DNA of 63,272 nucleotides, filler included, from Hausera hauseri (GCA_046269625.1; 12 parts of 12 records of this genome joined end to end with filler, not necessarily neighbours in it); one strand, 5' to 3'. Shown: positions 9,475 through 53,200, counted from the first letter of the whole stretch. The notes: generated from the sequence alone by a model not told the origin. A program made the numbers and translations.

Positions 9475-9531
9475 CGTTTTAAAACAAAATATTTTCTCTG
9501 TCTGATGATAGGATAACCCGATCTGTAATTC

Positions 9532-11739: not shown

Positions 11740-11975
11740 NNNNNNNNNNNNNNNNNNNNNNNNNNNNNNNNNNNNNNNNNNNNTTAATTAATTAANNNNN
11801 NNNNNNNNNNNNNNNNNNNNNNNNNNNNNNNNNNNNNNNAATTTATCAATAGAAAACGTTGTTTGTTGTATGAAGCCAGGCAATAAAATTCATGTTAAGG
11901 ATAATGATCATCATGACGAAAATTGTACAAATTTATCGATCAATTACAATTCCAAATATGATCTGATATTTTTTA

Positions 11976-12872: not shown

Positions 12873-13100
12873 AGTCGTGCTGCGATCAACTCACGAACGA
12901 ATGCAAAGCTGGGAATAAGCCCCCTGATGCCGGCTTTAATGAATGGCCATGTAGATGCGGTTTGCGTTCTGTTGGAGAAGAGGTCGGATATCAATTTACA
13001 AATTGAAACAAAGCGCAATACAGCTTTGACACTGGCATGTTTCCAGAGTCGTAGTAAGATTTTATCGATTTTATTTGAACGAGAAGCGTCTATCGAACAT
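12873..13100 (+). pseudogene. Two ankyrin repeats from MASK/ANKHD1/ANKRD17
   Basis: INSRTNAKLGISPLM.A.MNGHV.AV..LL...SDIN.QIET.RNTALTLACFQ closely matches the conserved MASK repeats. Confidence 0.88.
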
Positions 13101-13104
13101 CTCG

Positions 13105-20782: not shown

Positions 20783-22500
20783 AACGAATGCAATGGAGAG
20801 GCTACTGTTGATATTCTTTAATAAATTTTCGATAATATCCTATAAGACTGAGAAACTTTAGAACTCCCTTAACTAGTTTCGGGACTGAAAAATCTTGTAT
20901 TTTATTTATTTTCCCAATCTGAGGACTAATGCCTTTTCTGCTTACATTATGTCCTAAAAAATCAACCTTGTTTCTAACAAAACAACATTTCTTGAAACTG
21001 ATTTTATGCCAAGAAGAGCACACCTCTCTAACATATCTTTGAGGTGTTCTTTATGTTGTTAATAGTCACTGTAAGCGATTATGACATCATCTACGTAACA
21101 CATTATTTGAAATGTTGCCGGAGAATTTTTCATTCCAAATGCCATTCGGTTAAATTCGTAATGCCCATTTGCGGTCACGAAAGCTGTTTTTTGTTTACCT
21201 TCTTCCTGTACGTCTATCTGCCAAAAACCTTTTTTTATAGATCTAACGTGATAAATAACATTTTATCTTCCAATTTATCCAATAATTCGTCAATTCTAGG
21301 TAGTGGATAGGTATTGTCTATTGTTACCTCGTTAAGAGCACGGTAATCCACACACATTCTGATAGATCCATCTTCTTTCTGCACCATTACAGTTGAAACT
21401 GCCAATGGAGAATTACTGTGTCTCATTATATCATGTTTTCTCATTTCAGCTATTATTTTTTTTGCTTTTTATCTTTTATCGTAATTGAGCCGATATGGCC
21501 TCTTCTTAATAGGGGTTTCCATCCCGGCTTTTAATTTAATTTCATGTTTAATAACGGGGATTATACACATATCATATTCGTCAATGGCGAAGGTATCTTT
21601 GTATTGTTGTAATGTTTTGATTATTCCTTCTTTTTCGGAATCTGTCAATGTGCTGTCTTTACCCAACAAATCATAATCATTCCAATTAATGGGGGTCTTG
21701 ACAAATGTTGTCATTCTTTTATTTTTGTTAAGATGACCTTTTAGTTTATTCATTGGTTCTGTTTCGAATCGTATTCCAAATTCTGTTTGGGGTTTTTGTT
21801 GTTGTTTTTCTATAAATTCATATAACTCTTGTACGGTGGAAATAATGGCCACTGTTGCTTTATTGCCTATATCTTTTATGATGTATACATAGGCAATTCT
21901 CATGCCTTTTCTTAATAGTTTGTTTGAAACATGGGCTATTCGAACGATTACTTGTTGTTCTCGAATGTTCTCGATTGTATGAGCTAGCCATAGCTCATTC
22001 TTGTCCATGAACGTTATATGTGGTTCAATATAAACGTCTCCTTCATCTCGACCTTCTACTAAAGTTTTGAGCACAATCGCCGTTCTGGCTGGTATTAGCA
22101 CGTCTTCCATAATGGCCACTGTATCCTTTTTCTCATTCTTTGTTTTTCGATATGGTTGGATTTGTTGAGTTTCCATGTGTATACACATATCTTTTAATTT
22201 TGCTAACGCGTCACACCCGAGTATAGCTTCAGCCACCAATTCATCAGCTATTCTGAATTCCTTTTCAAATTTTTGGTTTAGAACTTTTGTCTCACATTTA
22301 ATCAGATCTTTCACTTGTACTCTTGTTCCGAATGCTCCAACATTCGTAATGTCCTCTTTGGGTTTTTGTAACATTTTCTTCAGTTGTTCTGGAAGTTGTT
22401 TGCGTGAGATCATTGAGGCTGATGCTCCTGTGTCAGTTATGGCTGTGATAGGATATCCGTCTATCCAAATTACTGTTCTCGGAATTACTTTACCGCCATC
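20783..22500 (-). pseudogene. Aspartic protease and reverse transcriptase
   Basis: AITDTGASASMI, AILGCDAL, PIKKRPYRL, KEDGSIRMCVDYRALN, YPLPRIDELL, CYVDDV at about 21083-21100, KVDFLGH. Confidence 0.93.
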
Positions 22501-22849
22501 TATGCTGGTTATCAAAACTTCGTTAGGAGCTAATGGATAAAATGTGAGTTTCATATATTTTGGCTCACAGTTATCTATATCGCTAGAACAATGTATATCT
22601 ATATATTCATTAGGGGATATGAAACGTTGTTGTTCCATTGGATACTTATTCCATTTTCTGATTTGGAGAATATCCGAAAGTAGAGTTCTCCGTTTCTTAC
22701 TTCGAGCAGTGATTAAACTCCATGTTTTCTTAGTACGATCAAACGACTGATGTCCTGTTTCTTTTCTCTTCTTTACTGGAGGCTCATCGTCTTCATCATT
22801 GGTGTCGTTTCTGTTTCTATTCTTCTGGTTCCATTCTACATCCTTCTTT

Positions 22850-24685
22850 GTTAGGAAACAGCTAGCAATTGACGGAATTAAGGCGCATATGATTTTCCAG
22901 GTACATCCAGCAGTTTGTTTTATGCCATAACCTTTTGTTATCATTGCCAGGATTACTTTTATAAATGCAAAAATATAATAAAATCCTAACCATCCCGAAT
23001 TAAATTGACCAAACCACATGTACCATCCTCAGGCAGTAGTAAATATATCCTTAGCAATTTTCTTTGCATAGCCAGGTCTTATCAAATTTTCCCAGTTAAC
23101 TTTCTCCGTATGATCAGCTAGCACTTTTATTGCCATCTCCGTTAAAACTTTCTGTTTTTGTTGATGAAACATCATCATCCTTTTATGATTTTCCATATCT
23201 TGCTCATAATATACGCCCGTCTTTACTAAATCTGTTAGTGGTTTATACGTTTGTTCCATTTTTAAATTAATTAGACTAATTCACCGAGGTGGAGTAATCT
23301 GCTCTTTTTTCAGCATCATTATACACAAGTTGTCGCTTAGTCGAAATTCTGGCGACATAGTATATGTACAATTTTGATGTACGTAGGGTTTTTCTGTCGG
23401 ATCCAATAGTATCCTTGTAATTGGTTGAAGGAAACGTGGTTTTTCTTTGTACCAGACAGGTAACACCATTGTACATTCACTGGTTGGTCTAAGTTTAACG
23501 GATACTCTAGTACATTCGAATCTTACAAGAGTTTCACCCATTGTTTGTGCAAATTTCCCTTCTGCATCAGGTGATTCGGCTGGATGTTTTATTATTCCGT
23601 CCGTTATCGCCGACAGATATTCTGTTTTTGATTATGTCGCGATTAAATTTATAATCTTTCAAGATTATTTCTCGATACATTGTGTAAATATTTTCCTGTT
23701 TGAAGTGATAGATGAAGTCTATTTTATTGTCAAAATACAGATGCGGTTTTACTTCCGATTTATCAATCTGTCTTTTAGCTTCTTCAATTCTTGTTGTCGA
23801 CAGGAATATTCCTTTGTAGTTTGTTCGGTATAACGTTTCATCACATCTCTTAGTATCGCCTTCTAATTTAAATCACATCCCTTCTGTCGGATCTGCTGAG
23901 TATACTATAGGTGGTGTATCAATTGTGTCTGATACTCGAAATATTTGACTTTTGGATATTTCTTTGTATATCTGTCCTCTAGTCTCGTTAAACTTTCCAA
24001 CCTTTAATAATACCAAATGGCATCGATCTCTGTTAACTTCGTATGACATGATTGATTCACCCGTATCACATTCTTTATTATAATTGTCACATTCGGGAAA
24101 TATCATCATTTTTCCAGACGATATTTCGAAGAGTGCGTCGTATTCCCTTAACTTAACTTGATAGTCTTCAATAACTGTCACATTATCCAGTATTTCATTG
24201 TTTATGTTATATGACTCACTTTTACAGTATCCTGTTTTATCGATTGAACCGGCTACAAAAATTCTTTTATTAATAATTTTTTCTTTTGGAGCCCTTAACC
24301 GAATGTTTCCAATATTGATCTGTTTTGTAACAAATGCTTCTAGGCACATCCGTTTACTTATTGGAAGTGGCTCAAACGTAGTAGTTGGTTCTATTATAGC
24401 TGAGTTCCTGTACCAGTAGCCACAAATAAAATAAAAATGATTTCTTCGGACAAAACATTCTTTTACTTTTGTCTTTACAAATTCTGATTCCTGATAAACA
24501 TAATATTCTTTTTCTGGTAATGTAATAGTGACGTTGGATTAGCAAATGGATATTTTTCTAAGTACAGTAAAGAATATATTGGACCGTCCTTAGCTTGGTT
24601 GCAATCATGTGCAATAATGGAAAGTGTTTTTGGCATAAAACTAACATAAGGAGTATGAGTATAACCTTAATTAGCCATGATAGAT
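22850..24685 (-). pseudogene. Envelope glycoprotein, chuvirus-like / class III (gB-like) fusogen
   Basis: Signal peptide WLIKVILILLML, then SIIAHDCNQAKDGPIYSLL; GETLVRFECTRVSVKLRPTSECTMVLPVWYKEKPRFLQPITRIL; C-terminal hydrophobic region WFGQFNSGWLGFYYIF...GYGIKQTAGCTW. Confidence 0.75.
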
Positions 24686-25257
24686 TTTGTTGTCTCTCTG
24701 GTTGTTGAGGTGGGAAATGTTTTGTCTGTCGATGCGTGACTGGTACGGATTTGTGTATTGTCGTCTGAATTAAACTAGTAATCCATCCACCTCTACATTT
24801 TACCCATCCGTCGACGTCAGCCTTTAACGCTCTAGTAGCAATTTCTATATTTCTCTCTATCTCTTCTTGGTTTGGATTAATTCCATTTATCACTATTATT
24901 TTATACAAGAGACAGGATATTGCTGTTACAATTTTATTTCGAGATATGCCAGTTCCAATCATTCTGGACAGTATGTTTCTTTCGTGGATTTCATTTATCC
25001 TCTCATTTGTAGGAATGTCTGCAAATTGTTCACTAATCTTTTTGATCTAATTCCTGATGCATTGAATTAGTGAATCTGGTATTTGTAAGTTTGTGTTAAA
25101 TTCAACAAAAGCATTACGCATTCGTGTTAACAAGGTTGGCAATAATGTTGTCAACGATACATTATCTACATCATATTCATCTTCTGTTGTTAGCAATCTC
25201 AGAAGAATTTCATCATCTCTGGCTTTCCTGCCTTTCAGTTGATAAAGTTTCGTTGTT

Positions 25258-25658
25258 CCTTTTGGTCTGCCACGATTTCTCTTATTCGTTTGGATTTGTT
25301 CTGATATAGGAATATTTATTTCAGCTTCTACTTGTTGAGCCTGATTCAGATGTTCAGCTTCTTGTATTTTTTGCCTAACGTCAGTGATGATTTCATCAAT
25401 TATCTCTTGTTCGGATTGTCTATAAGTAATGCACACAATGTTGTATCGGTTCTCCCAGATACCTACTTCATATAAAGTTTCATAATCCATCAGCGTTCGT
25501 CCGTAGAAGCGTAACTCTAATTTTCCTTGAGGCTGGTTTATTTCATTAATTCTGTTTCTTAATACAATTATCATATATAGCAACTTCATTCTTAGAACAT
25601 GAAAGTCGTGGTTATACTGTTGGAATGTAACCATTATTTCCGTGTTTTCTCCAACCAT
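25258..25658 (-). CDS. Ubiquitin-like domain followed by an AT-hook
   Basis: LELRFYGRTLMDYETLYEVGIWENRYNIVCITYR parallels ubiquitin [40 protein letters not shown] follows. Confidence 0.55.
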
Positions 25659-25899
25659 TCTTACCCTATCGGCNNNNNNNNNNNNNNNNNNNNNNNNNNN
25701 NNNNNNNNNNNNNNNNNTTAATTAATTAANNNNNNNNNNNNNNNNNNNNNNNNNNNNNNNNNNNNNNNNNNNNATTATTGTGTAATCAAATTTTGAATAT
25801 TCGATTTGGGAAATTGAAAATCGAAATACAGTGTTGCGACGAAATTATTGTGTAATTACTAAAATTAGAATTTGGAATTTTGAAATAAAGGAATCCAAA

Positions 25900-30206: not shown

Positions 30207-33200
30207 TGAAACGCTTGTGTCTATTCTTTGAAAGCCTTGATTCCATTTTTTAAAACGCTTGCCTCTATTCTTTGAAATGCTTGCCTCTATTCTTTGAAAC
30301 GCTTGATTGTATTCTTTGAAACGCTTGATTATATTCATTCAAATGCTTGTTTCTGTTAAATGAAATGATTTACTGTATTTCTTGAATTGGTCCATTGTAT
30401 TCTTTGAAAGGCTTAATATTGTTTTTTAAACGCGTGACTCTATGCTTTGAAAGGCTTGTTTCTATTCTTTGATATGCTTGATTCTATTGTTTGAAAGACT
30501 TGATTCTATTCTTTGAAATGCTTCTGTCTATTCATTGAAATGCTTGATTCTACTCTGTGAAACGCTGATCCTATTCTTTGAAATGTTTGATTTTATTCTT
30601 TGAAAACCTTGATTCTATGTTTTAAAACGCTTGACTCTATTCTTTTCTATGCTTTTGTCTATACTTTATAATGCTTCTCTCTACTCTTTGAAAAGCTTGA
30701 TACTATACGTTGAAATGCCTGATTCTATTCTTTGAAACGCTTGCTTCTCTTCTTCAAAGTGCTTGATTCTACTGTTTGAAACGCTGGTTTGTATTCTTTG
30801 AAATGCTTCATTCTATTCTTTGAAACCCTTGTTTCTTATCTCTAAAATGCTTCATTTTTTTCTTTGAAACGTTTGATTATATTCTTTAAAACTCTTGATT
30901 GTATTCTTTGAAACGTTTGATTCTGTTATGTGAAACTCTTGATTCTATTTTTTGAAAGCCTTGATACCATTTTTTAAAACGCTTGACCTATCCTTTGAAA
31001 TGTTCGCTTCTCTTCTTCGAAATGTTGTTTCTATACTTTGAAGTGCTTGATTCTGTTCTTTGAAACCTTGTCTATATATTTTAAAACGCTTGAATCTATA
31101 CTTTGAAATGCTTGATTCTATTCTCTGAAAGCCTTGATTCCATTTTTTACATCGCTTGACTCTGTGCTTTGAAATCTTGTTTCTATTCTTTGAAACGTTT
31201 ATTTGTATTCTTCGAAGTGTTCATTCAATACTTTGAAACGTATGTTTCACTTCTTAGAAATGCTTTATTCTATTGTTTTAAATGCTTGATTCTATTGTTT
31301 TGATCGCTTGTTTCTATTATCTCAAAAGCTTGATTCTATTCTTTGAAACCTTGTTTATATACATCAAAACGCTTGACTCTATACTTTGAAATGCTTGATT
31401 CTATTCTTTGAAACGCGTGTTCCTATTCTTTGAAATGCTTGATTCCTTTCTTTGAAACGCTTGAATGTATTCTTTGACACGCTTGATTCTCTTCTGTGAA
31501 ATGCTTGATTCTATTCTTTGAAAACCTTGATTCTGTTTTAAATCGCTTGACTCTGTGTATTGAAAGCTTGTATATATTCTTTGAAACGCATGTTTGTAAT
31601 CTTCGAAATGCATCATTCTATTCTTTGAAACGCTTTTTTCTCTTCTTTGAAATGCTTGATTCATTTATTCTCAATGCCTGATTCTACTCTTGGAAACGCT
31701 TGTTTATCTTCTATCAAATGCTTCATTCTATTGTTTGCAACGCTTGTTTCTATTCTTTGAAACGCGTTATTCTATTATTTGAAATGCTTGATTCTATTAT
31801 TTTAAAGTTCTTCATTCTATTCTTCGAAAGACTTGATTCCATTTTTTAAAACGCTTGACTCTAATCTTTGAAATTCTTGTTTCTTTTCTTTGAAATGATT
31901 GTTTCTATTCTTTGAAATGCTAGATTCTATTCTTTGAAAGCCTTGATTCTATTCTTTGAAACGATTGAATCTATTCTTCAAAATGCTTCATTCTATTCTT
32001 TGAAACGCTTGTTTCTCTTTGAAATGCTTGATTCATTTATTCGAAATGCTTGATTCTATTCTTCGAAACGCTCGTTCCTATACTTTGAACTGCTTGTTTC
32101 CATTCTTTGAAATGCTTGATTCTATTGTTTGAAACGCTTGTTTCTAATCTTTGAAAGGCTTGATTCTTTTCTTTGAAAGCTTGTTTCTATTCTTTGAAAC
32201 GTTTGTTTGTACTCTTTGAAATGATTCATTTTAATCTTTGAAACATTTGTTTCACTTCTTTGAAATGCTTGATTCATTTATTCTCAATGCCTTATTCTAT
32301 TCTTCGAAACGCTTGTTTCTCTCCTTTGAAATGCTTGATTCTATTATTTTGAACGCTCGTTTCTATTCTTTGAAACGTGTGATTCTATTATTTGAAATGC
32401 ATGATTCTATCATTTTAAAGTTCTTGTTTCTATTCTTCGAAAGCCTTGATTCCATTTTTTAAAACGCTTGACTCTTATTTTTGCAACTCTTTTTTTTTTC
32501 GAAATGATTATTTCTTTTCTTTGAAAGCCTTGATTCTATTCTTTGAAACTATTGATTCTATACTTCGAAATGCTTGATTCCATACTTTGAAACGCTTGTT
32601 TCTCATCTTTGAAAGGCTTGATTCCATTTTTTAAAACGCTTGCCTCTATTCCTTGAAATGCTTGTTTCTATACTTTGAAACGCTTGTGTCTATTCTTTGA
32701 AAGCCTTGATTCCATTTTTTAAAACGCTTGCCTCTATTCTTTGAAATGCTTGTTTCTATACTTTGAAACGCTTTATTGTATTCTATCGCTTGATGTTATT
32801 GTTTGAAAAGCTTGATTCTATTCTTTGAAATGCTTCTTTCTATTATTTGAAATGCTTGATTCTCTTCTTTGAAATGCTTGATTTTATTCTTTGAAACGCT
32901 TGTTTCTATTCCTTGAAATGCTTGAATTTCTTCTTTGAAATGATTGATTCTATTCTTTGAAATGCTTGATTCACTTCTTTGAAATGCTTGATTCTATTTT
33001 CTAAAACATTTGATTCATTTATTCGAAATGCTTAATTCTTTTTTTCTAAACGCTCGTTACCATTCTTTAAAATGCTTGTTTCTATTTTCAGAAATGCTTG
33101 AATCTATTGTTTGAAACGCCAGATTCTAATATTTAAGAAGCTTGATTCTATTCTTTGAAATGTTTGTTTCTATTCTTTCAAAAGCTTGATTCTATTCCTT

Positions 33201-34678
33201 GAAATGCTTGATTCTATTCTTTGAAACGCTTCTTTCCATTCTTTTAACGCGTAATTCAAAGAATTGAAACCCTTGATTCTATTCTTTGAAATGCTTGATT
33301 CTATACATTGAAGGCCTTCACTCTATTCTTTGAAAAGTTTGATTTTATTCTTTGAAATGCTTGATTTTATTCTTTGAAAGCCTTGATTTCCTTTTTTGAA
33401 AGGATTGATTCTATAGTTTGAAATGCTTGATTCTTTACTTCGAAACGATTGATTCTTTACTTTCAAATGCTTTATTATATTCTTTGAAATGCTTGATTCT
33501 ATTCTTTGAAACGCTTGATTCTTTTCTTTGAAATGCTTGATTCTATTCTTTGAAAGGTATGTTTGTATTCTTCCAATTGCTTCATTCTATTCTTTGAAAC
33601 GTTTATTTCACTTCTTTGAAATGCCTGAGTCTATTCTTTTAAATCCTTAATTCATTTATTCGAAATGCTTCATTTTATTCTTTGAAACGTTTGTTTCGCT
33701 TCATTGAAATTCTTGATTCTATTCCTTGAAATGCTTAATTCTATTCTTTGAAATGCTTGATTCTATTCTTTGAAATGTTTGATTCCATTCTTTGAAACGC
33801 TTGATTCTATTCTTTGAAACGCTTGATTCTCTTCTTTGAAATGCTTCTTTCTATTCTTTGAAATAATTGATTCTGTTCTTTGAAATGCTTGATTGTATTC
33901 TATGAAATGCTTCATTCTATTATTTGAAATGCTTGATTCTATTCTTTGAAATGCTTGATTCTATTCTTTCAAAGGCTTGATTCTATTCTTTGAAACGCTT
34001 AATTCTCTTCCTTGAAACTCTTAGTTCTATTCTTTGCAGCGCTTGTTTCTGTACTTTGAAATGCTTGACTCTAATGTTTCAAACGCTGGTTTCTATTCTT
34101 AAAAATGCTTGATTCTCTTCTTTGAAATGCTTGATTCTATAATTTTGAAGTTCTTGATTCTGTTCTTTGAAAGCCTTGATTCTACGTTTTAAAACGCTTG
34201 ACTCTATCCTTTGAAATGATTTATTCTGTTGTTTGAAACACTAGATTCAATTCTTTGAAACCAGTTATTCTATTCTTTGAAAGGCTTGATTATAATCTTT
34301 GAAAGCCTTGATTATATTCTTTGAAACGATGGATTGATATTTTGAAATGCCTGATTTTATTCTATGAAATGCTTGATAATATTTTTTGAAATCCTTGATT
34401 CTATTCTTTGAAATGCTTGACTTTATTCTACGAAATGCTTGATACTATTTTTTGAAATGCTTGATTATATTCTTTGAAACGCTTGATTTTATTCTATGAA
34501 ATGCTTGATTATATTCTTTGAAACGCTGGATTTTATTCCTTATAATGCTTGATTCTATTCTTTGAAATGCTTGATTCTATTCTTTGACATGCTTCATTCT
34601 CTTCTTTGAAATGCTTGATTCTATTCTTTGAAATGCTTGATTCTATTCTTTGAAATGCTTGATTCTATTCTTTGAAAT
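30207..34678. repeat. 22-bp tandem satellite, consensus TTCTTTGAAATGCTTGATTCTA
   Basis: About 200 head-to-tail diverged copies filling the contig. Confidence 0.97.
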
Positions 34679-36605
34679 NNNNNNNNNNNNNNNNNNNNNN
34701 NNNNNNNNNNNNNNNNNNNNNNTTAATTAATTAANNNNNNNNNNNNNNNNNNNNNNNNNNNNNNNNNNNNNNNNNNNNAGGATTATGGGTTTAGAGTTAA
34801 TGATGAGGGTCCATGGCGAGGGTTCATGGTGAGGGGTTTTGCGTTGCACCCGTTGCATACGTTTCGTGCCGGATTGGACTTAGTCTTATCCCGGCGTGAA
34901 GCGCTGCGAGGAGCGAAGCGCGACGGAAATTTTGGGATAAATCTAAGTACAAGACAGCACGATACGGATATAGCGCGTTTCATGCAATAGGGTTTAAGAG
35001 TTTGATAGTAACATGTTGTATATGTTAGGGGTTTAAGGTTGAGGGTTTGATAGTGTTATATATCTGCAGCCTAATTTTTGCTTATATTACTTTTAACTTA
35101 CTATATATTCTAATGTAGTCTAATTTGGGCATATTATATAATTTAGCTTATATTGCTTTCTAATTAATATATACATATTATAATGCGATCTAAGGTCGTC
35201 TTTTGCATGTTTTAACTTCTACTGTAGGGTTTGATTGTGGCGTATTGTATGTATTACGGGTTGGTAGTAGGGCTTTTCATGTGTTAGGGTTAATTATTAT
35301 TATTATTAACAAATGATAGGGCACGAAATAGGGCTTTTAAGCATCATACAGCTTTTAAGAGTAATTTCACTTTTTACATAATTTTGTCTTATATTTTACT
35401 ACAATGTAATTTTGGCTTATTACACATATATTGTTACTTATTCTAATCTAATAACATGTATTGCTATTGTAACTCTAACTTACGGTATATATTGCACCAT
35501 TTCGCGGACTTTCAACTTTAATTTGAAATGATTTTCTCTGCGCCGGTCGCATTGCTGCTGCCACTTGTTAACTAGGCTTATCCGCATACTTGGTAGCTTC
35601 TATCACTTGATCTTGCCGGTGCTTCGTCATTCGCACCTGCGGGCTTTGCGGCTCAATTAGCCGTTTGATAGGCTTCACACTTGGCACAGGCTTCTTTTTC
35701 GTTTCTGTGTTCTTCTATGTTTCCGATTCATAGTCAGAGTAGGCGTCTGTTAGTGCAATGCCCATCCTTAACTGACTGATAGACACTACATTTTTCCTAT
35801 GCTGGAGGCTGGCTCTTTGATTTACTGGACACTGGTGTTAGGTATTCAACCAAATAGACCGATTTGTCAAAATCTACTATTTCTTCGGCATTTGTCTCTG
35901 CTTCTGACTGTATATGCTCATTTTTAATCTTATTCTTTGTTCACTAGCTCTTGAGTAAGATGCTGACTTGTCATATTTTCGATAAAATAATGACAAATGC
36001 TGCCTTATATACTTTGCCATACTACTTCTTTTCTAAGGATGTCATAATTAGTGTCTGCACACATAATTTTAGGTGTGCGCGCACATCAAAAAAATAAAAG
36101 CACACACACAGTTTTCTGGATGCACACATTCACACACATTATTATATATAATATTTTACATTGCGGCTTTTTAACGTTACTAAGTAACAAGGTTAAAAAA
36201 TACTAATATTTTACATTGTGGTATGTTAAGTAATTTTTTCAATAAAATTTTATGTTTTGGCAACATTGACTTAAAATAGTTTTGGTAAACGGTTGATGTC
36301 AGTTATATAGTTTTATTTGATAAGTCTTAATAAATCTATATAGCACAAACTAAATAACACACATGTATATAACTTTCTCGCTATAAAATTTAATAAGTCT
36401 TTAAAAACTATAACACACACTCGAATATAATTTTTTCGTTGTCAAATTTTATAAGTCTAACAAAATTATATAACACATACACACATGAATACAAATTTGT
36501 TGCTATATTAGTCCTGAATGTTCCTATATAACACACACGATTACAATTTTACAAGTTGTTATTAAAACTAATTAACACAAACTAATAAAAATTTATTTGT
36601 TACAA

Positions 36606-36854
36606 TTACAAACTATACATTTTAAACATCCTCATTGCTTCAATATGCTTCACGACTAGCAATTGTACATCTTCGCTGTAAATTGAGTAGTACAGACTAG
36701 ATTAGGCACACTGTGGGCACGTTGTCTTTTCTTGTATCCATTGGTTTATGCACAGCAGGCAATACCTGTGGATACATCTGACTACTCTGACAGGCGTATA
36801 TTGTACACTGTCCTGACAAATGACGCAGAAGTCGCATTGAGATAAGCTTTACAT
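36606..36854 (-). pseudogene. Small C3HC4 RING-finger gene (two internal stops), divergent from pPolB
   Basis: Manual translation M*SLSQCDFCVICQDSVQYTPVRVVRCIHRYCLLCINQWIQEKTTCPQCA*...; AATAAA just after the final stop. Confidence 0.85.
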
Positions 36855-37639
36855 TGTTTAATAATGATTTATTGCAACATATTGCTACATTATATACATT
36901 TTTATCCTATAATTTGATTGGCTGAAATTTACTATAAATAAAGCATTGTAATCCACAAAAGTAACAAATCATTTCAAAGGATAAAATGGTATTATATTAC
37001 TTACATATTTCTTCTTACTTCTTATTCTAGAATTACGAATACAACTATTGTACCAGCCAAATCCACTCGCCGGACAAATGCTATGAAATTATGGCCAAGT
37101 ATTATGGCCTTCAATTGGACGGATCACAGTTTTCCATCTGTCCAAAATGTGAGAACTACAATACCCAGAATTCAAACATCGCCAAAAGGGATCACCTATC
37201 TTATTTCACAAAATCGAAAAAAATTAATTCTCAAAGGCCATATGGATACTATTAAAGTGGCCAAACAATTCGTCGCAGATCAACATGTAAAACCAACAAC
37301 ATGTACCCAACAACAACAACCAGTCAAACGGGCAATGAAGCCTGATCACAGTGTAGATAAGAAACGTAAATTTGATGAACATATTAAAAGGTCTGTACAA
37401 AAGATTAGACTCGATGTACAATCAGTTGTTGGTAATAATTATGTAAAGTTTTGTTTTGATGTTGTGCTGACCAAATGACTTCTACTCGACCGTCTGATGA
37501 GATTTTGACCATCTTACATCTGTACACTTCTACATTTCCATCTTGTAAAGTCCAATACGGTCTGGAGATTCTGTTTACTGATGTGAGTGTGATACAAAGG
37601 AGGATTATATTTCCCACAAATCTGACTCTTATGAGCAGT

Positions 37640-39612
37640 TTTATCCTGATTTAGTAGCTGGTAGTTTACTGTAGCAAATTGAAAATTTTGCTGAAATGGG
37701 TAGTGGGTGGAAGGTGGTTAAGATATTAAAGTACTCTTTTCATGTAGTAAATCAAGCACACTACCCTATTTGTCGGGTAAGTCCTATATTTCAACACCTG
37801 GTACTTTAAAAAAATGAAAAGGCTGTTATTAGTGTTCAAAATTAGGACCCTGTGATTCTTATACTCCATTCTTGCAATTGCTAAGTATTTCCTCTTTAAA
37901 GGTTCGGGTAAAAAGTCAGTTACTGTTAAATTTCTGGACACTTTGCAGCTTTTACCCGCTTCGCTCAAAACATTAGCATCGAACTTAGATAGCTATCCAT
38001 TGACAGAAGCGGCTTTTCCTTCGGACATTATTAAAGGAAAAGGTATATTTCCTTACACCGCTGCAAAATTTTCAGCGACTTGCAGTCCATTTCTGCATTA
38101 CCATGAAAATGGGGTGGTGTGAATGATACAGATTATGACGAAGCACAACTGGTTTGGCCAAGATATAGTTGCAGCTCGCTTTTGGATTATATGTTTATAC
38201 ATATGAAACTTTATGTTTTCTTGTTAGGTGATGTTTTCGAACCGTTTGGAAAGGAAGTTAAGTTGAACGATGGATTAAAATACGTTAATTTCGTCTCTAT
38301 TTCTGGTTTATCTTGGGCAACGCACTGAAAACCAGTCCATATCGAATAGAACTTATTCAGGACCCTCAGATGTACAATTTCTTTCAAACTGGTATATAAA
38401 TGTAAATAATTTGTACGACTCGGCTTTATCACAACTACTGCCATTTGCGAATTTAACATGGATATATGATGAGGACAAATTAACTAGCCTGATTGAACAA
38501 TTTCCTTTCATTGACTATGTTAGGGGAAAACGAGGCTTAGTATTTGAGGTGGATTTAAGCATTCCGGTTGACAAAGATGATGAGTTTGAAGAATTGTCTC
38601 TAGCACCAATTAACAAATGTCATCCTAGTTCAAAAGTTAAAAAATTGCTGCTTACACATGAGCGTAAGTCCAACTATGTTGTTCACTATCGGCTCTTACA
38701 GTTTTACATCGAGTTAGGCGCTAGAGTTTGAAAGGTACATCGGGATGTTGAGCTTGACCAGGGATATGTTTTTAAGGATTACATACGTAAATACTGCTAA
38801 GAGGGCTGCAGCAAATACTCTTTTTGAAAAAGACTTTTTAAGCTTAAGAACAATAGCTTATACGGCAAAACTGTTGAAAATCTTCTGAATAGATCCAACC
38901 TGAGACTGTACAATAACGCTAAAGAGCTAGTTACATATGCTAATAAGGCCCTGTTTAAAGATAGCATCATTATAGCCGATGATCTGGCTGCCGTTTTCCT
39001 TAATAAAGACATGGTCACATTAGATAAGCCCTCATACATCGGTCAGGACGTACTTGATCTATCCAAGTTACGGATGTATGAGCTGCATTATATCGACTTG
39101 GAGACATATAGGCACCAGTTACACTATGAACTTAATATTGTTGTTGTTGATACAAGCGGCTTCTTCCTTAAATGCCGTGGTGTTGACTTAAAATCACAAT
39201 TCTTACCGGAAATGATAGCAAACGAGAAGTTAGATACGTTAAACTATGACAAGAGTGATCCGCTGTACTCGACTGGTTTCGCAACTGTAATTGGGAACTT
39301 TAAAGACGAGATCAAGGGCAGCGCCTAGCATCAAAAGGCGATTTTCCTACGGCCGAAATCCTATGCCCTCAATACCGAAATTAAACCAGTCCTCAAACGT
39401 GACGGCATAAATCTCAAGCAGACAGATTTATACTTTGACAGCTACCTACAGGCTTATGAAACCGGTGGAAGCACCCTGGTGGATCACGAGGGAATTGGAA
39501 ATCCATCAGCTTATGACAATCAGCTCAAAAATGAAAGCATTGGATCGGTTCGACGACAAACGCCAGCGGATTGACAAGAACAAAAGTGTTGCATATGGAT
39601 ATTATTGTATAA
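37640..39612 (+). pseudogene. Polinton/Maverick-type protein-primed DNA polymerase B, decayed and internally deleted
   Basis: GSGW, FLDTLQLLPASL, KGIFPY, FEVDL, KKLLLT, KLKNNSLYGKTVEN, LDLSKLRMY, RPKSY, FDDKR. Confidence 0.9.
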
Positions 39613-40756
39613 ATGTGTGATTACATTTGGTGCCAATAAATATTTCATTCTTTACCGTGTTTATTTTATTAATAAGGTTTTCTTAATCAGGGTAAATACG
39701 TTTCATTTACACTGTTTTCGTATTGAGAACATTTACAACATACAAAGGTTAACATTTATTATCGAACATATTTTGATAAAAATACTACAACTGCACCAGT
39801 AAGAATACTACACACAAGTAAAACANNNNNNNNNNNNNNNNNNNNNNNNNNNNNNNNNNNNNNNNNNNNTTAATTAATTAANNNNNNNNNNNNNNNNNNN
39901 NNNNNNNNNNNNNNNNNNNNNNNNNACAGGGCAGTTTCCGGTCGACAGTCAACTTGCGCTCAATGTCCAATACATCACAACCGGAAGCTACACTATTAGA
40001 GTATTGGCGTATAATAGCATTGAAAGTACCATGGAAAACGGTAGTTACTGCGTCTCGTGTTAATTGCAACCTGCCAGTCACAACTACAAACGATAACAGT
40101 ATCTACATTCAATGAAGCTTATTTTTTCAATTATCTCTAAATGCCAATAAAAGATAGATTCATCACAGATCTCTTCATCAATCAAAGTATTATCATTCAG
40201 ACCAGGTCATTCGCACTCAGTAGATAAAAATTCCATTTACACAGAAAATCCAAATAAGGAAGATTGATCTCTAGACGCCTGCTTTTAGGCTGCTTTTGCA
40301 AATTCACCGACTTCAATGGATGTACTGTGTTTAGAATAATTTGTATTCTTTTCTTTTGCAAAAAGTGCATTTTATTACTTTTCAGTTGTTCTGGATTGAC
40401 ACCAACTTAATGCACATTACTCTTTTTGTGACGTAATTTGTTATGTCATCAGTTAATGTCAATGGTTATTTTTTGCAAGTATGTTGTCGAAAAATGGTTT
40501 GTTTAAAATAACCAAAAAAAGGAGGATTGAGAAGTACGGTTTTTGAATTCGGCTTTTAGCCGTAGTGAATAAAATCGTTGTGTCCCTGTTGAATTCAATT
40601 TCTTGCAGTTTGCCATTTTGGACTTTTATCGTCATTTTGACTTCATTTTATTTTGTATTCTCTTGTTGTCGATCATTGGATATAACTCAATTTCCAAATT
40701 GGTGTCAGATTATACCAGTACAAAACAGTCAATTTTCTTTCCAAACTGACGTTAGA

Positions 40757-41940
40757 ATGCACAATAAATTCTGGTCAAATCGTAAAAGTACCAATGAGAA
40801 ATCCATTCATTCTCTAAAAACAAGAAATCGACATGATGACGAAAATTTTAAGAGTTCCGTGAATAATTGCAACGAAAAGCCTGACAAGACTTTTACCGTA
40901 TTTTCCAAACTTCGATCTTCGTTTTCTAAAGCAAATTCGTTTGATTCAGATTTTTTACAGAAAAAACCAAACATATTTCCGAAAGAATTGGATAATTGTG
41001 ATCGTCATTATGGGGAAAAGGGTCTGATATCATTGAAAATGATTTTCTCCAAATCTTTGAACATATCGTCGACAAGAATGAGACGTTCCAATGATGACCA
41101 AGATCGTGAAACCGGCGATGTTGTTAGCCATTTGTCTGTGAAAAGTGACGAAGACGATCGAGATTGGCATTATTCATTGCATCCCATGAACAGTAACAAA
41201 GCGGAAATTACACCGAAGGATATCGCGAACAATGGCAACACATGTTATATCAATTTCATCATCCAATGCTTGAATTCAGTTGATCAACTTGCGAAATATT
41301 TTCTTCTCGACGAATTCGTTGACGATAGCAAATCCTCGAAGAATTCAGATACTATGAATTTGATGTTGTTAACGAAATTCTTTATGTTTCTCAAATGTCT
41401 CTGGTTGTTAGAACTCGATTGTTATTCGTTATCCAATGATTTCCGTTTTTAATTGCCAAATACCGAACGCAGTTTTCAAAGCAATGATCAACAGGACGCC
41501 CAAGAGTTTCTGTTGTTTCTACTCAACCATTGCCACGAACGTTTGAAAGTCTGTGTCGTTTTGGAACCGAAGAAAGTCAAGAAACCGAGAAAGAACATTC
41601 TCTATTTCGAAGCGCAGAAAATCGTCAACCTGAACAAATCCCGAATTTATTCGATTTTCGCCACATATCAACAGTTGGTTATTGTCTGTCCGATTTGTCG
41701 TACTCGAAAGAACAAATTGGAACCGAATATTTGCCTTAGTCTTCCAGTTCCGGCTAAAACAATGGAGCCGTTGTATTATTGTTTTGTTGAAAAGGACGGA
41801 TCACAAATATTCGCAGAGATATGGATAAACACTGTCAGCCCTGTACAGTTTGTTCGTGCAAATATCGCTCACAAATTCAGAATTAATGTCGATAACACCA
41901 TGATCATGGTCGTCACTGAATCAGGATTCGGGAAATGTTC
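40757..41940 (+). pseudogene. Ubiquitin-specific protease (USP) N-terminal half, no His box
   Basis: Cys box NNGNTCYINFIIQCL, QQDAQEFLLFLL, CPIC...EP..CLSLPVP; in-frame stop at 41450-41452. Confidence 0.88.
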
Positions 41941-42327
41941 TCAGGGTTCTGGCACGTCTATCGAATTGCTGTCTGCGGAAAACACAGTCCACGACAAGCA
42001 ACATATGGAATGGTGTAGTCGCCCTTAAGACATCATACGTAAACAATAATTCATTCCGTCAAGAAACCGATCCAGACTCTGATCAGTGCGCATCAGATGA
42101 AAAATAGTAATTTGCCATTGAGTAGAATTACTTTCGATCACACCAATGACATACGTCGTCGAAATGAACATTATGATAATTTGTCTTTAAATGAGGAAAA
42201 GTGTACATATACTTTATTGGACGGTATAGAAACACGATGTTGTCAGTCGATTAATGCATCTGTTAATAAAAACCAGTCAAACACCGACGACGAATCGTCC
42301 GAAAGTCAACTGAAGCTCGTCGCTATT

Positions 42328-43285
42328 CGCGTTGAAGAACTTGTCGATGTGTTAAAACTTCAAGATCGCCAATATCTGGGCATTAAAGCTTGCGCACTCA
42401 GAACTCTAACGGCCATAATTCATAGCGGCATACACACGTCTTGCTGGTCTGTGTTAAAAAACATGACGAGAGTAAACTCATATCACGGGAATTTTCCGAC
42501 GATGATGCGCGATTGGATTGGCGATTTGGTTCAAGGCAAATTCTATCCATTTGCTGGCACCATCGAACAACACTTTACAACAGCGATTTTACCATTTCTT
42601 TATCCTTTGGCTTGTACGAATGAAGTCAGTTCTAGCCAAGGGAATCTAGTTGGAACCGGATTACTACATTCCTTGGAGGAAATCATAATAGGGCGCACTG
42701 TTGAAACAGATTACATTAGTTTTGCAACTAGAGCAGTTCGACTTATTGATCAAATACTCTTGTCCTTTCAGATCAACAGCAACACAACTAGTCAAAAGAG
42801 CATAATTCATGCCTTGGTGAACAGATTAAAATTCGATGTAAACATCTATTTAAATTTTGATGTTGGTGAAATCACAATGAAACATCTGGCAATCAACACA
42901 CAACGCGTTGGATTCATCAAAAACATGTTAAATTTGACAAAACGTTTAATCCTCGATAACAAATGGACGGATACGTCACACACTACGATGGAATATGAAT
43001 TGCCAGACATAATACGGCAAAATTTCATGAACTATACTAAATTCAATCCGCAATTGTGCCTGTTCTCAATGGAAGTCATCACGAATTTCGAATACAATCA
43101 GCCGTCAAGCATGTCCACAATGCAGGATCGACATCTTACTCGAGATATTCTTCCCGTTTTAACGGAACAACCTCTTTCAGTTAACCGGGATTTCTTTGTG
43201 GCATTGCCAACGTTGTTGACTGCCTTGTCTACAAATAGGCGGGGTATCAACGAAACAAAGGAGACCAATATCGTCGTCAATATCA
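42328..43285 (+). pseudogene. HUWE1-like HECT E3 N-terminal ARM region, internal fragment
   Basis: VEELVDVLKLQDRQYLGIKACALRTLTAIIH, NSYHGNFP, FATRAVRLID, QPSSMSTMQD, LPTLLTALSTNRRG. Confidence 0.85.
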
Positions 43286-43587
43286 ATCAGACCTGTTTGA
43301 TTATCATTTCCGTTATTGCATCGGAACTGACAGATTCATATAAAGGTAATACAATAATTGTTGCAATATATATTAAGTGCCATATGGACATTTTGATCAA
43401 ATTTGCCTACAAAAATTAATCTGTTTATTCCCCGCTGTTGAAATCATTTGTAACCATGCTCGGTGAAGCCCAGCAACTTGACTTTCGAACTTAAGACCAT
43501 CCTGAACAGCCAGAGGAGTCATCGGTCACCCCTAAATTTGGTACCAGCCGCGGTGAGGCTGACGTTCCGGCCGCCCACCCTGCGCCA

Positions 43588-44937
43588 TTGGGTCAGACGG
43601 CGCCTTTCGCTTTAGCTCCACAACACGCCCCGGGCACACCACTTCTTATTTCTTTCTTTTTTCTCAACAACAAACACATTAACACACATACAGCAACACA
43701 TTTAAACTCTGTTGCCATCCATGAAATCATCTCCACTTCTCTTCTCTCCTCTGATTTCTACCTTACACACGACGGATCTCTAGTACTCTTTGCTGGAACT
43801 CTACAATCTTCCTCAACCCACATCTGTTTTCATAATCATTTCCGTATCCGTGGTGGCATGGATTTGTCACCCACAATTGACACCGCGGATAAACTCACTA
43901 AACAACAGATCCCCATCATTCATTTACCCAAACACAGCGCTTCCAACATCTCTACACAACATACCCTCCTCACTCATTCACCCTGCACAGAATATTTTCT
44001 CGATAGCCAAAACTCTACTCAAACTTGGCTAAAACTGCACCAATTTTGGCTCCAATCTCAAAACGTCGTCGACTGGTTAGCCAAGGCCAACAGCCTCTTT
44101 TTCCACTTACCAGCCTCCATGAAAATTAAAATCACCAATATAATCGATATCCTTCAGCACGCTGACCCATATACCCAACTCTATAATGCCGTTCTCAAGC
44201 TTACTGAGCCCTCAATCGATTCAATCATTCAAATGTTCTTTAATGACAACGCCATGGGCCTTCAGAAACCTTCTGAATTCCTACGCACATCCTTGTCTCA
44301 CCTTAACACCCTTGGAGTAATCTCTGAACACAGTCCTGAACTCCTTTGTAGCTATTTCTTAAATGCATTGCCCCTTCAAATAAGAGCTTTGCTAACTGTG
44401 TTTGAGGACTCCACGGCTCTTGACAAGCTAGCCGAACTGGCAGACAAGGCATACGAAGTACGGCACTCACATGCAGCGCCAACTATTTCTGCAACCTTGA
44501 CAACAGATCAACAGCAACAAAATACAATGCTGCAGCAACAAATTGCGCAATTGCGCGCAGAAAATAAAACATTACAAAAAACATTCAACCACATTAACGA
44601 CAAAATAAACGCATTAACACTACCTCGACGGAGTTTTTCTAGGCCTGCTTCCCCTAATGCATTTAATCAACGTCAAAGACGGTGGCCTTCGCCCGCGCGG
44701 TCATTAATTTGCTATTATCATAGCAAATTTGGCAACAATGCCCAGAAATGCTGCATCGGTTGTAAATTTCATTCCCCTAATTTCAATACATGCAACATCA
44801 TTTGCATATCCCACTCAAAATTTGGCGCAAAAGCACAAAAATGCCTATCTGGCTGTACCTATAGCACACACAATAAGACCCACACTAATAAGTTCACACA
44901 AAACAGTAGACCAAACTCACCAGCTCCAAAAAACTAA
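43588..44937 (+). CDS. gag: UBL-Gag: ubiquitin-like leader ending RIRGG (to 43857), then Gag from Met 43858 with two CHCC fingers
   Basis: DPYTQLYNAVL, MGLQKPSEFL, FLNALP, LAELADK, CYYHSKFGNNAQKCCIGC and CISHSKFGAKAQKCLSGC. Confidence 0.85.
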   Translation: MGQTAPFALAPQHAPGTPLLISFFFLNNKHINTHTATHLNSVAIHEIISTSLLSSDFYLTHDGSLVLFAGTLQSSSTHICFHNHFRIRGGMDLSPTIDTADKLTKQQIPIIHLPKHSASNISTQHTLLTHSPCTEYFLDSQNSTQTWLKLHQFWLQSQNVVDWLAKANSLFFHLPASMKIKITNIIDILQHADPYTQLYNAVLKLTEPSIDSIIQMFFNDNAMGLQKPSEFLRTSLSHLNTLGVISEHSPELLCSYFLNALPLQIRALLTVFEDSTALDKLAELADKAYEVRHSHAAPTISATLTTDQQQQNTMLQQQIAQLRAENKTLQKTFNHINDKINALTLPRRSFSRPASPNAFNQRQRRWPSPARSLICYYHSKFGNNAQKCCIGCKFHSPNFNTCNIICISHSKFGAKAQKCLSGCTYSTHNKTHTNKFTQNSRPNSPAPKN

Positions 44938-44969
44938 TTTTGCCGCTAGGACACACGGCAAGTTCTAGC
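44928..44969 (+). promoter_or_regulatory. -1 ribosomal frameshift signal (A AAA AAC plus pseudoknot)
   Basis: Slippery heptamer before the gag stop, then GCCG-CTAG...CGGC...CTAG. Confidence 0.75.
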
Positions 44970-45119
44970 AAAGGCAACAACCAGCAAAAACATAGCCGAC
45001 ACATTTCTTTTGCTGTATTNNNNNNNNNNNNNNNNNNNNNNNNNNNNNNNNNNNNNNNNNNNNTTAATTAATTAANNNNNNNNNNNNNNNNNNNNNNNNN
45101 NNNNNNNNNNNNNNNNNNN

Positions 45120-49695: not shown

Positions 49696-50218
49696 CTATA
49701 AGTTTANNNNNNNNNNNNNNNNNNNNNNNNNNNNNNNNNNNNNNNNNNNNTTAATTAATTAANNNNNNNNNNNNNNNNNNNNNNNNNNNNNNNNNNNNNN
49801 NNNNNNCGTACCAAAGGGAAATCGAGGGTGCAGTTCATATGTGTATTGCACATGTGTAATACACAACCCTCAGAATTGCCACAATTACATTAGGAGCTAT
49901 TATGGACACAAATTGAATAGGATCATCTATTATAACTGCCCAGGATGTGAGGCTGTATGTGATGGAGAATACATGCAGTTTTAAGAAGATCACAAATATC
50001 ACTTGAATGACTTCATATTAAAATCAAAAAAGGTCATATTTAATGAGCAGCATCGTGTTTTAGCAGCGCAGCCTGTTTTGGCAGCACAGCCACTTCTACA
50101 ATTTAATTTAGCAGCAAGGCCCGATGCAGGACTAAAGCGCATATCAGAAGTAGAAGCAGACGCTCTGTGAAAAAGCCAAAGACATCGTCCAGTTGATGTA
50201 GCTGCACTGAAGAGCAAA

Positions 50219-53200
50219 GTGCGGCAATACTTCATAGCAGCAGTGGGGCAGATATTGCTTCATGAATTCCTGGAATATTCAAAGGAAAAGGCAGCGGGAA
50301 TTCTCAAGGACAACTTGTTGAAGCTGAAGGCCCTTAAGATAAACTTCAAATTGAAAGCCACCTTCACCAATGTCAAAGGAGAGCTGTCTAGTAGAGCCTA
50401 CAAAACAAAGAACAGGTCACTATTAAAATCCTCTAACATTAAGGATTTTACTAGAGGACTATGCAAGGCTCATCCGCGAAGCCGGAGAAAGCCAGGACAA
50501 GAAAAGCGGTTGGACTTTAGCAACAATAAAGGGGTTACTTATGCATGTTCACAAGTATACTCCCATGCGAGGCAGCTCTTACATACCGCTTCCTGAATGG
50601 ATAATTAATAAAAGGGTAGGCATCAATGTCCATAATGAGGAAAGCATGTGCTTCATGTATCCTATTTTGTCAAAACTAGTCCAGGATCAATATAATGCTT
50701 CCCGAGTTTGCATATAGGACAAAGTGCAGCACTCATAGGACTTCAGCTGTATTTTATTCCCGCAGAACGTAGATGAAGTCGTGAAATTTGAAAGCGTAAA
50801 CAACATCTCAATCAACATCTTTGAATTGGATGAGGACAAATTTTATCAATTACATGTGTGCAAGGAGGAATTGCAGGATCATAGGGATCTGCTCGTGCTA
50901 GATGATGGAGAAAGGAGTCATTTCATCTGGATCAAGATTTTGAGCGCCTCGTAGGATCCAAAATATGCAAGCATAAATCAAGGCTGGAAATATGCAAAAG
51001 ATGCTTTCCTCATTTTAATGGCGACACAGCCGCAAAAAAGCTGGAGGAGCACAAGTTTTACTGTAATACAAAATATTGCATCCGAGCAGAATTCCCCAAA
51101 AAGGAATACTTGGAATTCAAAGAGTTCGAGAAGATTCAGAAGGTGTCGATTGCCATATATTGTGACTTTGTATCCATCCTCAGTCCGGTTCACAGCTGCA
51201 GCCATAATACGCAGCAAAGCAGTACTACAACATACCAATACCATGAGTTATCATCATACTGCATGTATGCCAAAGGACTGAACAAAGAATCCTACCCATA
51301 CAGAAGTGTAAATGCAGCAGAACATTTTATGAAACAACTTGACGACATGGCTCATAGGCTTGAAAACATGCTTCAGTAATATAAGGATAATATGAGCATG
51401 TCGAAGCAGCAAGAAGAAAAATGGCGCAAAGCATCAACATGCAAAGTCAGGAATCATTGCCATTTTACAGGCATATACCGAGGCGCAGCGTGCAACAATT
51501 GCAATACATGTACATATATTCCCATGGTATTTCACAATCCTAGTGGCTATGATTCACATTTCATTGTTGAAAAACTGGACAACATTGATGGGAACATTAA
51601 TGTCATTCCCAATAGTGAGGAAAAATACATCACCTTTTCAAAGCATGTGTGCCGCATTAGACTTCGCTTCATTGATAGCTTTCGCTTCATTAGCTAGTCA
51701 CTGGATAGTTTAGTGAAGAACCTTCCTGCAGAAGAACTCAAGGAGACGAAGAGGTTCTTCCTGGATACATTTGATCTGGTGAGGCGGAAAGGAGTGTTCC
51801 TCTATAACTATATAACGATATGGAAAGCACTGTATCAAGATGCTTTACCGACCAAGGAGGACCTCTATAGTCAGTTGTCATACAGTCATATTAGCGATGC
51901 TGACTATGAGCATGCCCAAAGAGTATGACAGACCTTCCAGTGCAGGAAAATAGGGGAATACAGTGATATCTATCTCCTCACAGATGTGCTGTTGCTTAAT
52001 GGTGTCTTCGAAAGTTTTTGGGAAGTGACCATTAAGAACCACAAGTTAGATGCAGGCCATTTCTTTACAGGTCCAGGAATGAGTTGTACATTTATACTGC
52101 GCTATAGCTTCATAAGGCTACAGATCTTGAAGGACTGCCATATGGTCCTCATTATTGAAAGAGGCATCAGGGGTGGAATCTGCCAGGCCATTCACAGGTA
52201 CAGTTAGGCCAATAACAAGTATATGGCCCAGTATGATCCATCCAAGGAATCCTCATATATATCATACCTGGATGCCAAAAATCTGCATGGATGGGCAATG
52301 AGCAACCCATTGCCATATGGTAACTTCAAATGGATGGAGCAGCCGCAAGTCCTGGATATTAAAGGTATGGATCCAAATAGAGATACGGGCTACATACTGG
52401 AGATGGATGTGGAATACCCACATAGCACCCACACTAAACATGAGCTGCTGCCTTTGTTCCCCGAGAGCAAAAGGCCGCCAAATGTTAAGCATAATGGATC
52501 CAAAGTGGACTCAGAGTCATCAGTATTCATCGGACCCTGCAATTCAGCCAGTCTAAATGGCTGAATCCCTACATAGACCTCAATACCCAGTTGAGGGCCA
52601 ATGCCAAAAACGAGTTTGAAAAGGGCCAATTGAAGTTGTATAACAACTCGGTCTTTTGCAAAACTATGGAGAACATCCGGAACCGGATAAACATCGAGCT
52701 GGTATATGACTGGAAAAGAGCAAAGAAACTCATCGCTAAGCCCAACTGCTACAGCAGCACAATCTACACGGAGAACCTAGTGAGCATCCATATGATAAAG
52801 ATATCATTTGAGTTCAACAAGCCTATATATGTGGGCATGTTTATATAGGATCTATCTAAAACCCTGATGTATGACTTTCATTACAACATCATGGTCCCCA
52901 CATTCAAGGAGCTCCAGCTAATGTACATGGACACGGACCGTTTCATATACCAGATCCACGCAGGTGATGTCTTTAAAAAGTTTGCAAAATTGGCGCAGTA
53001 TATGGATACCTCGGACTATCCGAAGGATCATCCAAATTACTCAACCGTCAACAAGAAGGTCTTCCGAAAGTTTAAAAACGAGATGAATGAGAAGATCATC
53101 ACCCGTTTCGTTGCGTTGAGATCAAAAATGTACTCCATCGATGTAAATTGTCAGATAAAGAAGCGGGGTAAGGAAGTTTAAAGGGCCACATTAGCTAAAG

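Follow-up and report, generated by a model that had tools for sequence, protein, structure and literature searches.

Chimeras formed by long terminal repeat (LTR)-mediated retroposition are described from animals and from the maize element Bs1, and the available part of Tan et al. 2016 (PMC5131818) proposes template switching as the way in which they arise. In the available part of the review by Arkhipova (PMC6431247), captures are given as lying downstream of pol or between the LTRs. Here we report on a stretch of 63,272 nt from Hausera hauseri (the window), in which fragments of two genes, a ubiquitin-specific protease (USP) and the ligase HUWE1, are joined ahead of the gag of a CsRn1-like element whose Gag is preceded by a putative ubiquitin-like (UBL) domain. 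The window consists of 12 contigs of 4-9 kb each, joined by N44-TTAATTAATTAA-N44 linkers, and the contig of interest occupies 39926-45019, ending 82 bp past gag. Our reading, which we hold tentatively since as a whole it reaches at best an even chance, is that the mosaic would be LTR cargo of a UBL-Gag Ty3/gypsy element, translated as an extension of open reading frame 1 (ORF1) that is removed at the UBL.

The mosaic resembles the chimeras of Tan et al. 2016 (PMC5131818, as far as the available text goes) in that partial, intron-free mRNA pieces of several genes are joined in an LTR element and re-amplified. In the Drosophila cases of the same text, internal ORFs are partly replaced and the elements are non-autonomous, whereas here gag is whole, the cargo stands ahead of it, probably upstream of the primer binding site (PBS), and one TG..CA unit with cargo is found inserted alone. 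No such replacement is seen at this locus: the UBL-gag ORF (43495-44937) is complete and open, in a copy that is visible only up to gag. The CHCC Gag signature of the CsRn1 clade was defined for CsRn1, PwRn1 and AgCR (PMC2582038), and, judged by the accessible part of that report, these share with our element the CX2HX9CX3C motif, DUF7041 in relatives and a gag/pol overlap in different frames; unlike them, the present element has two CHCC motifs, an N-terminal UBL ending in GG and a primer site that is not of the tRNA-Trp type, and its LTR-like cargo units measure at least 2.5 kb against 381 bp for the PwRn1 LTR. Burro and other giant or cargo-bearing LTR elements also have a long ORF1 in which host-like domains are encoded, a Ubi2/SUMO-like motif among them, but in Burro, as the available text has it, Gag is N-terminal with fixed domains behind, whereas here variable fragments stand ahead of Gag (PMC6431247). 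The nearest functional analogy is found in the ubiquitin insertions of cytopathic pestiviruses, in which, according to the part of the source at hand, cellular RNA pieces and a ubiquitin-like unit stand in frame before a viral protein, as here; pestiviruses, however, are RNA viruses with sporadic insertions, whereas here the UBL is fixed in a retrotransposon group (PMC13517609).

The layout departs from gene capture as known in flies and maize, and we regard it as a variant of gene capture mediated by LTRs. LTRs that contain coding sequence are familiar from U3-borne ORFs such as mouse mammary tumour virus sag or human immunodeficiency virus nef, and GAG of Ty1 starts inside its LTR, although a literature look-up gave no confirmation of the latter. 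All of these are the elements' own fixed genes, while the present cargo consists of changing mosaics of host mRNA. The literature covered, which was partial (few subscription papers, no Repbase) and is weak evidence on this point, describes neither a UBL-Gag group nor host mRNA mosaics within LTRs.

The mosaic and its amplification

The USP and HUWE1 mosaic is real. An intron-free USP fragment extends over 40757-42028 on the plus strand, from its first ATG at 40757, and comprises an N-terminal low-complexity part, Cys box, QQDAQEF motif and fingers. The Pfam UCH profile (254 positions) aligns in two parts, 3-51 and 79-144, separated by an in-frame TAA at 41450, and 41222-41773 resembles the solved chains of USP8, USP15, USP4 and USP2 (E 4e-16). 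The Cys box is kept, is drifting and has the stop codon downstream of it; the His-box half is absent (UCH is matched to position 144 only), so the fragment does not qualify as an active USP. An internal HUWE1 fragment from the DUF913 region follows at 42322-43251 (+), where residues 94-403 of the ORF 42043-43419 match residues 303-619 of human HUWE1 (E 3e-33); only this part is present and the HECT domain is absent, which disqualifies it as an active HECT ligase. The spacer between them (42043-42321, +), in frame with HUWE1 as the first 93 residues of the same ORF, gave no Pfam match at E 0.1 and no Atlas match above 0.85, and it may be the USP's own insert region. After HUWE1 comes a tail or U5-like stretch (43252-43538, +) with gag-frame stops at 43417 and 43492. 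USP, spacer and HUWE1 all lie on the gag strand, and none of the 41 minus-strand ORFs of at least 45 aa in four upstream or cargo stretches had a Pfam match.

The initial annotation had described just such a truncated intronless USP, spacer and internal HUWE1 fragment joined on the element's strand, both enzymes without a complete catalytic domain, and in this it is borne out. It had also let the mosaic end within about 250 bp of the putative PBS; the HUWE1 homology ends 287 bp and its ORF 120 bp before TGGTACCAG at 43539. Its left boundary at 39926 is a mere contig edge.

Evidence on amplification came from an outside run, X1, which accounts for 51% of sampled words and has coverage in all 30 bins; a second run, X2, has a small share and was drawn on for one spanning contig only. 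The listed mosaic sites are each covered by 2-7 distinct X1 contigs, against 1 at 40400 and 40466, and the cargo contigs among the best 16 of more than 4300 pieces diverge by about 6-9% from the window; one 373-bp X1 contig over 40251-40622 has 2 differences. Summed X1 contig depth, which by the tool's own caveat is not copy number and is read here as a relative sign only, is 38-53 over 39926-40265, 14-16 over 40266-40605, 60 in the bin 40606-40775 and 30-109 across 40606-43325, and then reaches 219 at 43486, 610 at 43533 and 3126 at 43566. Single X1 contigs bridge the USP-spacer junction (41721-42064) and the HUWE1-tail junction (43123-43418), and an X2 contig (43405-43578) crosses the PBS region. 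Because several diverged X1 contigs are found at each mosaic site listed, the mosaic is an amplified unit, neither a misassembly nor a host locus. That it is part of a mobile unit is further supported by the bridged junctions and by relatives sharing the anatomy.

In the window, HUWE1 is read in the same frame as gag. Of the 131 codons of this frame over 43253-43647, 2 are stops, against 7 and 9 for the two other frames; in the X1 contig spanning 41721-42064, a net gap also brings USP and HUWE1 into one frame. Among 19 listed fixed differences in the cargo (the best-supported rows of more than 1000, hence a weak sample), 6 are synonymous and 13 are not. This copy is decayed. The HUWE1 homology stops at GGCGGGGTAT (43236-43247), which resembles the polypurine tract GGCGGGGGCTAT of the metagenome locus L009. 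It may mark a switch point, or the likeness may be coincidental, the sequence being HUWE1-coding as well.

The UBL-Gag element, its primer site and its relatives

The UBL domain at 43648-43857 (+) ends in RIRGG. A profile built from 16 relatives, with the window row excluded, finds it at E 2e-4, the next window frame following at E 0.26, although the stretch alone gave no Pfam match. Its structural model has beta-grasp order, and all 48 Foldseek rows listed are ubiquitin or UBL proteins at E 0.006-0.03, with no match at E <= 0.001 and none for the Gag core among those rows; a predicted beta-grasp fold ending in GG is what a cleavable ubiquitin-like leader would look like. The Gag itself (43858-44937, +) has two CX2HX9CX3C motifs and a terminal slippery-type AAAAAAC (44928-44934), and shares 50% identity with the gag at 56057-57151. 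The two glycines ahead of Gag (G120 and G121) are conserved to at least 90% across 31 aligned Gags, and sequence comparison indicates that UBL-Gag is a trait of the group. In one relative (P0039) an almost canonical ubiquitin precedes Gag (Pfam E 3.7e-23), which suggests that the tag was renewed from host ubiquitin mRNA.

Two copies of the CHCC signature in 43495-44937 tie the element to CsRn1, yet TGGTGACCC, a motif that we take to be of the tRNA-Trp type, is absent from the mosaic contig at up to one mismatch; we therefore call it CsRn1-like. The order protease, reverse transcriptase, RNase H, integrase and the gag-pol overlap are found in the sister element of contig 12 and in the metagenome loci L002, L003, L009-L011, L013 and L016. 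The sequence TCGGTCACCCC at 43522 was considered as a Trp-type primer site in decay and found unsupported.

Two primer-like motifs flank the cargo. Motif B, TGGTACCAG at 43539-43553 (+), presumably complementary to tRNA-Leu, reads G-T-S in the gag frame, 106 aa before the GG end of the UBL; in P0002 and P0003, the two closest relatives among the matches listed, G-V-S stands at 107 and 111 aa. Between 43533 and 43566, X1 depth goes from 610 to 3126, a fivefold increase over the motif. Since the primer peptide of the closest relatives sits at this position and the depth steps up, motif B is probably the working PBS, and the cargo would therefore lie on the LTR side, in a unit whose start is either close to 40590 or past the edge of the contig. 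Motif A, TGGTGTCAGA at 40700-40711 (+), agrees with the family site at 10 of 12 positions and is either a relic or the working PBS; it occurs exactly twice in the window against 0.08 expected, both times in mosaic contigs, the motif having been chosen after it was sighted. We disfavour it because the depth upstream is lower than over the cargo, unlike that of an LTR.

Upstream, the contig start (39926-40586) has low depth and AATAAA at 40146 and 40568, and is either flanking DNA or an upstream part of the LTR. A weak candidate for the 5' edge of the amplified unit is 40587-40696 (+), with TGTTG at 40587 and CA at 40695-40696; TGTTG occurs three times in 39926-41000, and this is the one near the depth step, where the low-depth X1 contig also stops (40622). 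Judged as an LTR, 40587-43538 has a primer site directly behind it. The family PBS, TGGTGTCAGAAG, was found in the loci L002, L005 and L009, with whole TG..CA LTRs ahead of it in L002 (524 bp) and L009 (431 bp). A GTAAG donor-like motif lies at most 30 bases past the primer site in L002 (4993-5025) and L009 (4419-4450, both in gag orientation), and host exons could be captured by splicing from this motif. Concerning the 5' LTR that the initial annotation placed here, the PBS call is probably right, by the position in relatives and the depth step, while the expected recurrence of the cargo in a 3' LTR would fall beyond the contig; a short conventional LTR, which it had set against its own reading, was not seen, and no short-LTR pair was found around the mosaic (one such pair was tried and dropped when 1018 of 2000 shuffles did as well).

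Relatives of the Gag were taken from the best 150 of 1817 matches at E <= 0.001, and 40 of these (one cut-off protein included) are double-CHCC. Host pieces stand ahead of UBL-Gag in six of the 40, all six with UBL-GG, namely DIS3L and CNOT1 (both in P0003), H2A, Arp8 (weak, E 0.001), SCC3-like, HSP90 and 5'-nucleotidase. Among single-CHCC Gags, 1 of the 20 scanned out of 110, mostly the longest ones, has a host domain, and there a UBL is present as well; a RING finger is present in another relative, P0079. In P0003, P0011, P0012 and P0020 the host piece is ahead of the primer-site peptide. Peptides spelled by TGGTGTCAGAAG (LVSE, WCQK, GVRS) occur nine times in 5118 aa upstream of the UBL and never in 7457 core aa (shuffle control: mean 0.48, maximum 6 in 2000), counted in the 23 of 40 double-CHCC proteins that the parser handled, the other 17 being N-terminally cut or unparsed.

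The proteins P0015 and P0010 are single unspliced frames of the loci L012 and L013, free of stops for 857 and 351 codons ahead of the UBL. In L009 the corresponding open stretch measures 186 codons at 28% GC (P ~2e-6), and the ORF1 ATG at 4142 falls within the LTR (3986-4416). In many group members ORF1 opens upstream of the PBS and continues into UBL-Gag, as the DNA of L009 shows and the primer peptides in nine relatives imply. In the window, 40757-44937 amounts to about 1390 codons, which comes near the 1272 aa of P0015 and the 1323 aa of P0014. Only L009, L012 and L013 of 17 metagenome loci reach far upstream past the UBL; the PBS is visible in L002 and L005. By eye, the 3' LTR region of L013 has no recognisable cargo. 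Four added loci (L018-L021), all contigs of one bacterial metagenome-assembled genome that contain the UBL-Gag retrotransposon group and are probably eukaryotic contamination, gave no further primer site. Word-index protein searches with gag and with longer forms of the HUWE1 piece and of the Gag alignment gave no match, a negative of little weight. At the locus level, searching metagenomes for the window gag returned 0 matches, as did two alignments and one pattern run against viral contigs.

Cargo units and other features of the window

The best evidence for cargo within an LTR-like unit comes from another contig, where a TGTT..AACA insert of 2481 bp (59830-62310, +), bearing SPOC, PICALM and Wntless-like transmembrane (TM) fragments, lies within an integrase core. 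The integrase is split without loss of sequence: of seven relative Pol proteins aligned across the insert, four stop and resume at the same residue and three resume slightly earlier, in the insert. Self-comparison found no inner repeat pair, the ends are TG..CA, a short target duplication is present and the PICALM-TM junction is in frame. The unit is a solo-LTR-like insert carrying cargo, and not the cargo-filled 5' LTR of the initial annotation. Its ends share no detectable sequence with those of the mosaic, and the cargo differs too.

A second mosaic contig (11967-14667, +, window 11840-14910) holds DUF2838, TGGTGTCAGAA at 12596, a nameless piece, ankyrin and axonemal dynein; together with the transposon content, this dynein piece points to an animal. 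The primer-like TGGTGTCAGAA is followed directly by ATG and cargo, two junctions are in frame, and TGGTGACCC stands at 14902 with no gag seen behind it. A likeness of the pre-PBS stretch of this contig (contig 3) to the 3' end of the solo LTR was positive under lenient scoring and failed under stricter scoring and dinucleotide shuffles (223/2000; global 89/1000). Upstream of the sister gag (54304-55750), ORF pieces at 54522-55322 and an AT-rich stretch are found; the pieces are possibly more cargo, and profile searches gave no identity for the ORF 54522-55073.

The remaining contigs contain a minus-strand retroelement with protease, reverse transcriptase and two pieces of a Monjiviricetes-type fusion glycoprotein (20783-25673), decayed frames like family-B DNA polymerase, Polinton-like by eye (34779-39825 and 49807-54203), a minus-strand element with an RNase T-like exonuclease and, by eye, a RING-like stretch and an integrase-like frame (6756-11739), and satellite arrays of 10/20-bp and 22-bp units (16628-20682 and 30207-34678). 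The 63,272 nt hold no tRNA genes.

Origin of the mosaic and its meaning

We propose that pieces of spliced host mRNA would have been joined by template switching during reverse transcription and come to lie upstream of the primer site at 43539, within an extended LTR of some 3 kb at least, so that the cargo would be duplicated into both LTRs. Captured pieces that keep the frame would become an N-terminal extension of ORF1. A host deubiquitinase could then cut past the GG of the UBL, as ubiquitin-fusion biology suggests and as host enzymes cleave the ubiquitin insertions of pestiviruses, freeing a normal Gag whatever precedes it; the UBL would thus render the 5' end tolerant of cargo while gag-pol is retained. 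That the cargo belongs to the 5' end of the element we regard as quite probable, and that it lies inside the LTR as only somewhat more probable than its opposite.

Several observations weigh against this proposal. For the window copy, the 3' LTR and the target-site pair are outside view since the contig ends at 45019, the sequence directly ahead of 43539 has no terminal CA, no single outside contig bridges the whole mosaic among the pieces listed, the depths are relative signs, and the upstream-of-PBS stretches show no similarity to one another. Intron loss is deduced from homology that runs unbroken through USP and HUWE1, an intact parent gene not being among the sequences examined. In the solo LTR the flanks AAAAG and CCAAG agree at only 3 of 5 bases. 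Read-through is absent from L002, where the frame of the LTR is closed by a stop and gag uses a different one, and from L011, while L005 has 33 open codons with a start past its PBS. The cluster representatives may be skewed to long fusions, only P0015 and P0010 among the long proteins were matched to DNA, and P0003 and P0152 are identical at 981 of 996 positions and could be alleles. The cargo could moreover lie in U3 rather than in R/U5.

The second primer-like site raises a rather unlikely alternative, in which the working PBS is at 40700, the LTR ends at 40696, USP and HUWE1 lie in the leader as an ORF1 extension and motif B is a relic. Motif A has CA and three bases ahead of it and fits the family site (10 of 12) more closely than B, AATAAA stands at 40568, contig 3 has the same motif followed at once by ATG and cargo, and in P0003 two primer-like peptides flank CNOT1, which comes behind a perfect NGVRS peptide; such a site could put the cargo in the leader. 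The depth above 40600 (14-53), however, is below that of the cargo (30-109), where an LTR should be at least as deep, and it is motif B that occupies the primer-peptide position of the closest relatives. Less probable still is a separate cargo repeat (a non-autonomous LTR derivative, a Pack-type DNA transposon or a Helitron) beside a short-LTR element: the depth steps from about 60-90 to 219 at 43486 and to more than 3000 past 43539 would fit it, and multi-gene internal captures are known, at least from the available text of PMC5131818, but no short-LTR pair was found, the two stretches upstream of the PBS show no similarity, diverged contigs extend out of HUWE1 as far as 43418 and from 43405 over the PBS, relatives repeat the layout, and HUWE1 and gag are in one frame with few stops.

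The cargo itself could be functional, with the catalytically dead pieces of USP and HUWE1 acting as decoys in host ubiquitin pathways, or with the cargo giving rise to small RNAs against the parent genes, in line with both pieces being ubiquitin enzymes beside a UBL, with the two RNA-decay pieces in P0003 and with the W-linked LTR retrocopies of Plutella that yield silencing RNAs according to the accessible part of PMC9674220. This appears improbable given the drifting Cys box with its downstream stop and the 13 nonsynonymous against 6 synonymous differences in the weak sample above. In addition, the 13 other identified cargo pieces (SPOC, PICALM, Wntless-like TM, DUF2838, ankyrin, dynein, DIS3L, CNOT1, H2A, Arp8, HSP90, SCC3-like and 5'-nucleotidase) share no theme. 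The USP and HUWE1 pieces are most likely passengers, because their catalytic halves are absent, and the ubiquitin theme that the initial annotation saw in the cargo is probably chance, since both enzymes are dead fragments and the other pieces lack such a theme. A misassembly, which the initial annotation had allowed for, or real host genes that happen to be neighbours, is very hard to credit: the assembly is of short contigs, none outside bridges the stretch and the spacer-HUWE1 junction is absent from the best 16 of more than 4300 pieces, but X1 covers every bin, bridges two junctions and departs from the window sequence at numerous positions, which shows that it does not just repeat those reads, and both genes are fragmentary.

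Reported animal LTR captures cripple the element by replacing internal genes, whereas here the cargo appears to precede a gag that is intact, and in one case to lie in a lone LTR-like unit. A UBL that served as a release tag cut by the host would explain how the N-terminal extension can change at little cost to the element. An ORF1 initiated in the LTR, together with the host-cut site of the UBL, could make the LTR an open bay for in-frame pieces of host mRNA, from which autonomous elements and their solo LTRs would scatter changing, promoter-linked multi-gene chimeras, an idea that we put forward with rather less than even confidence. If it is true, each leftover solo LTR would be a promoter-linked exon shuffle or a source of small RNAs against essential host genes.

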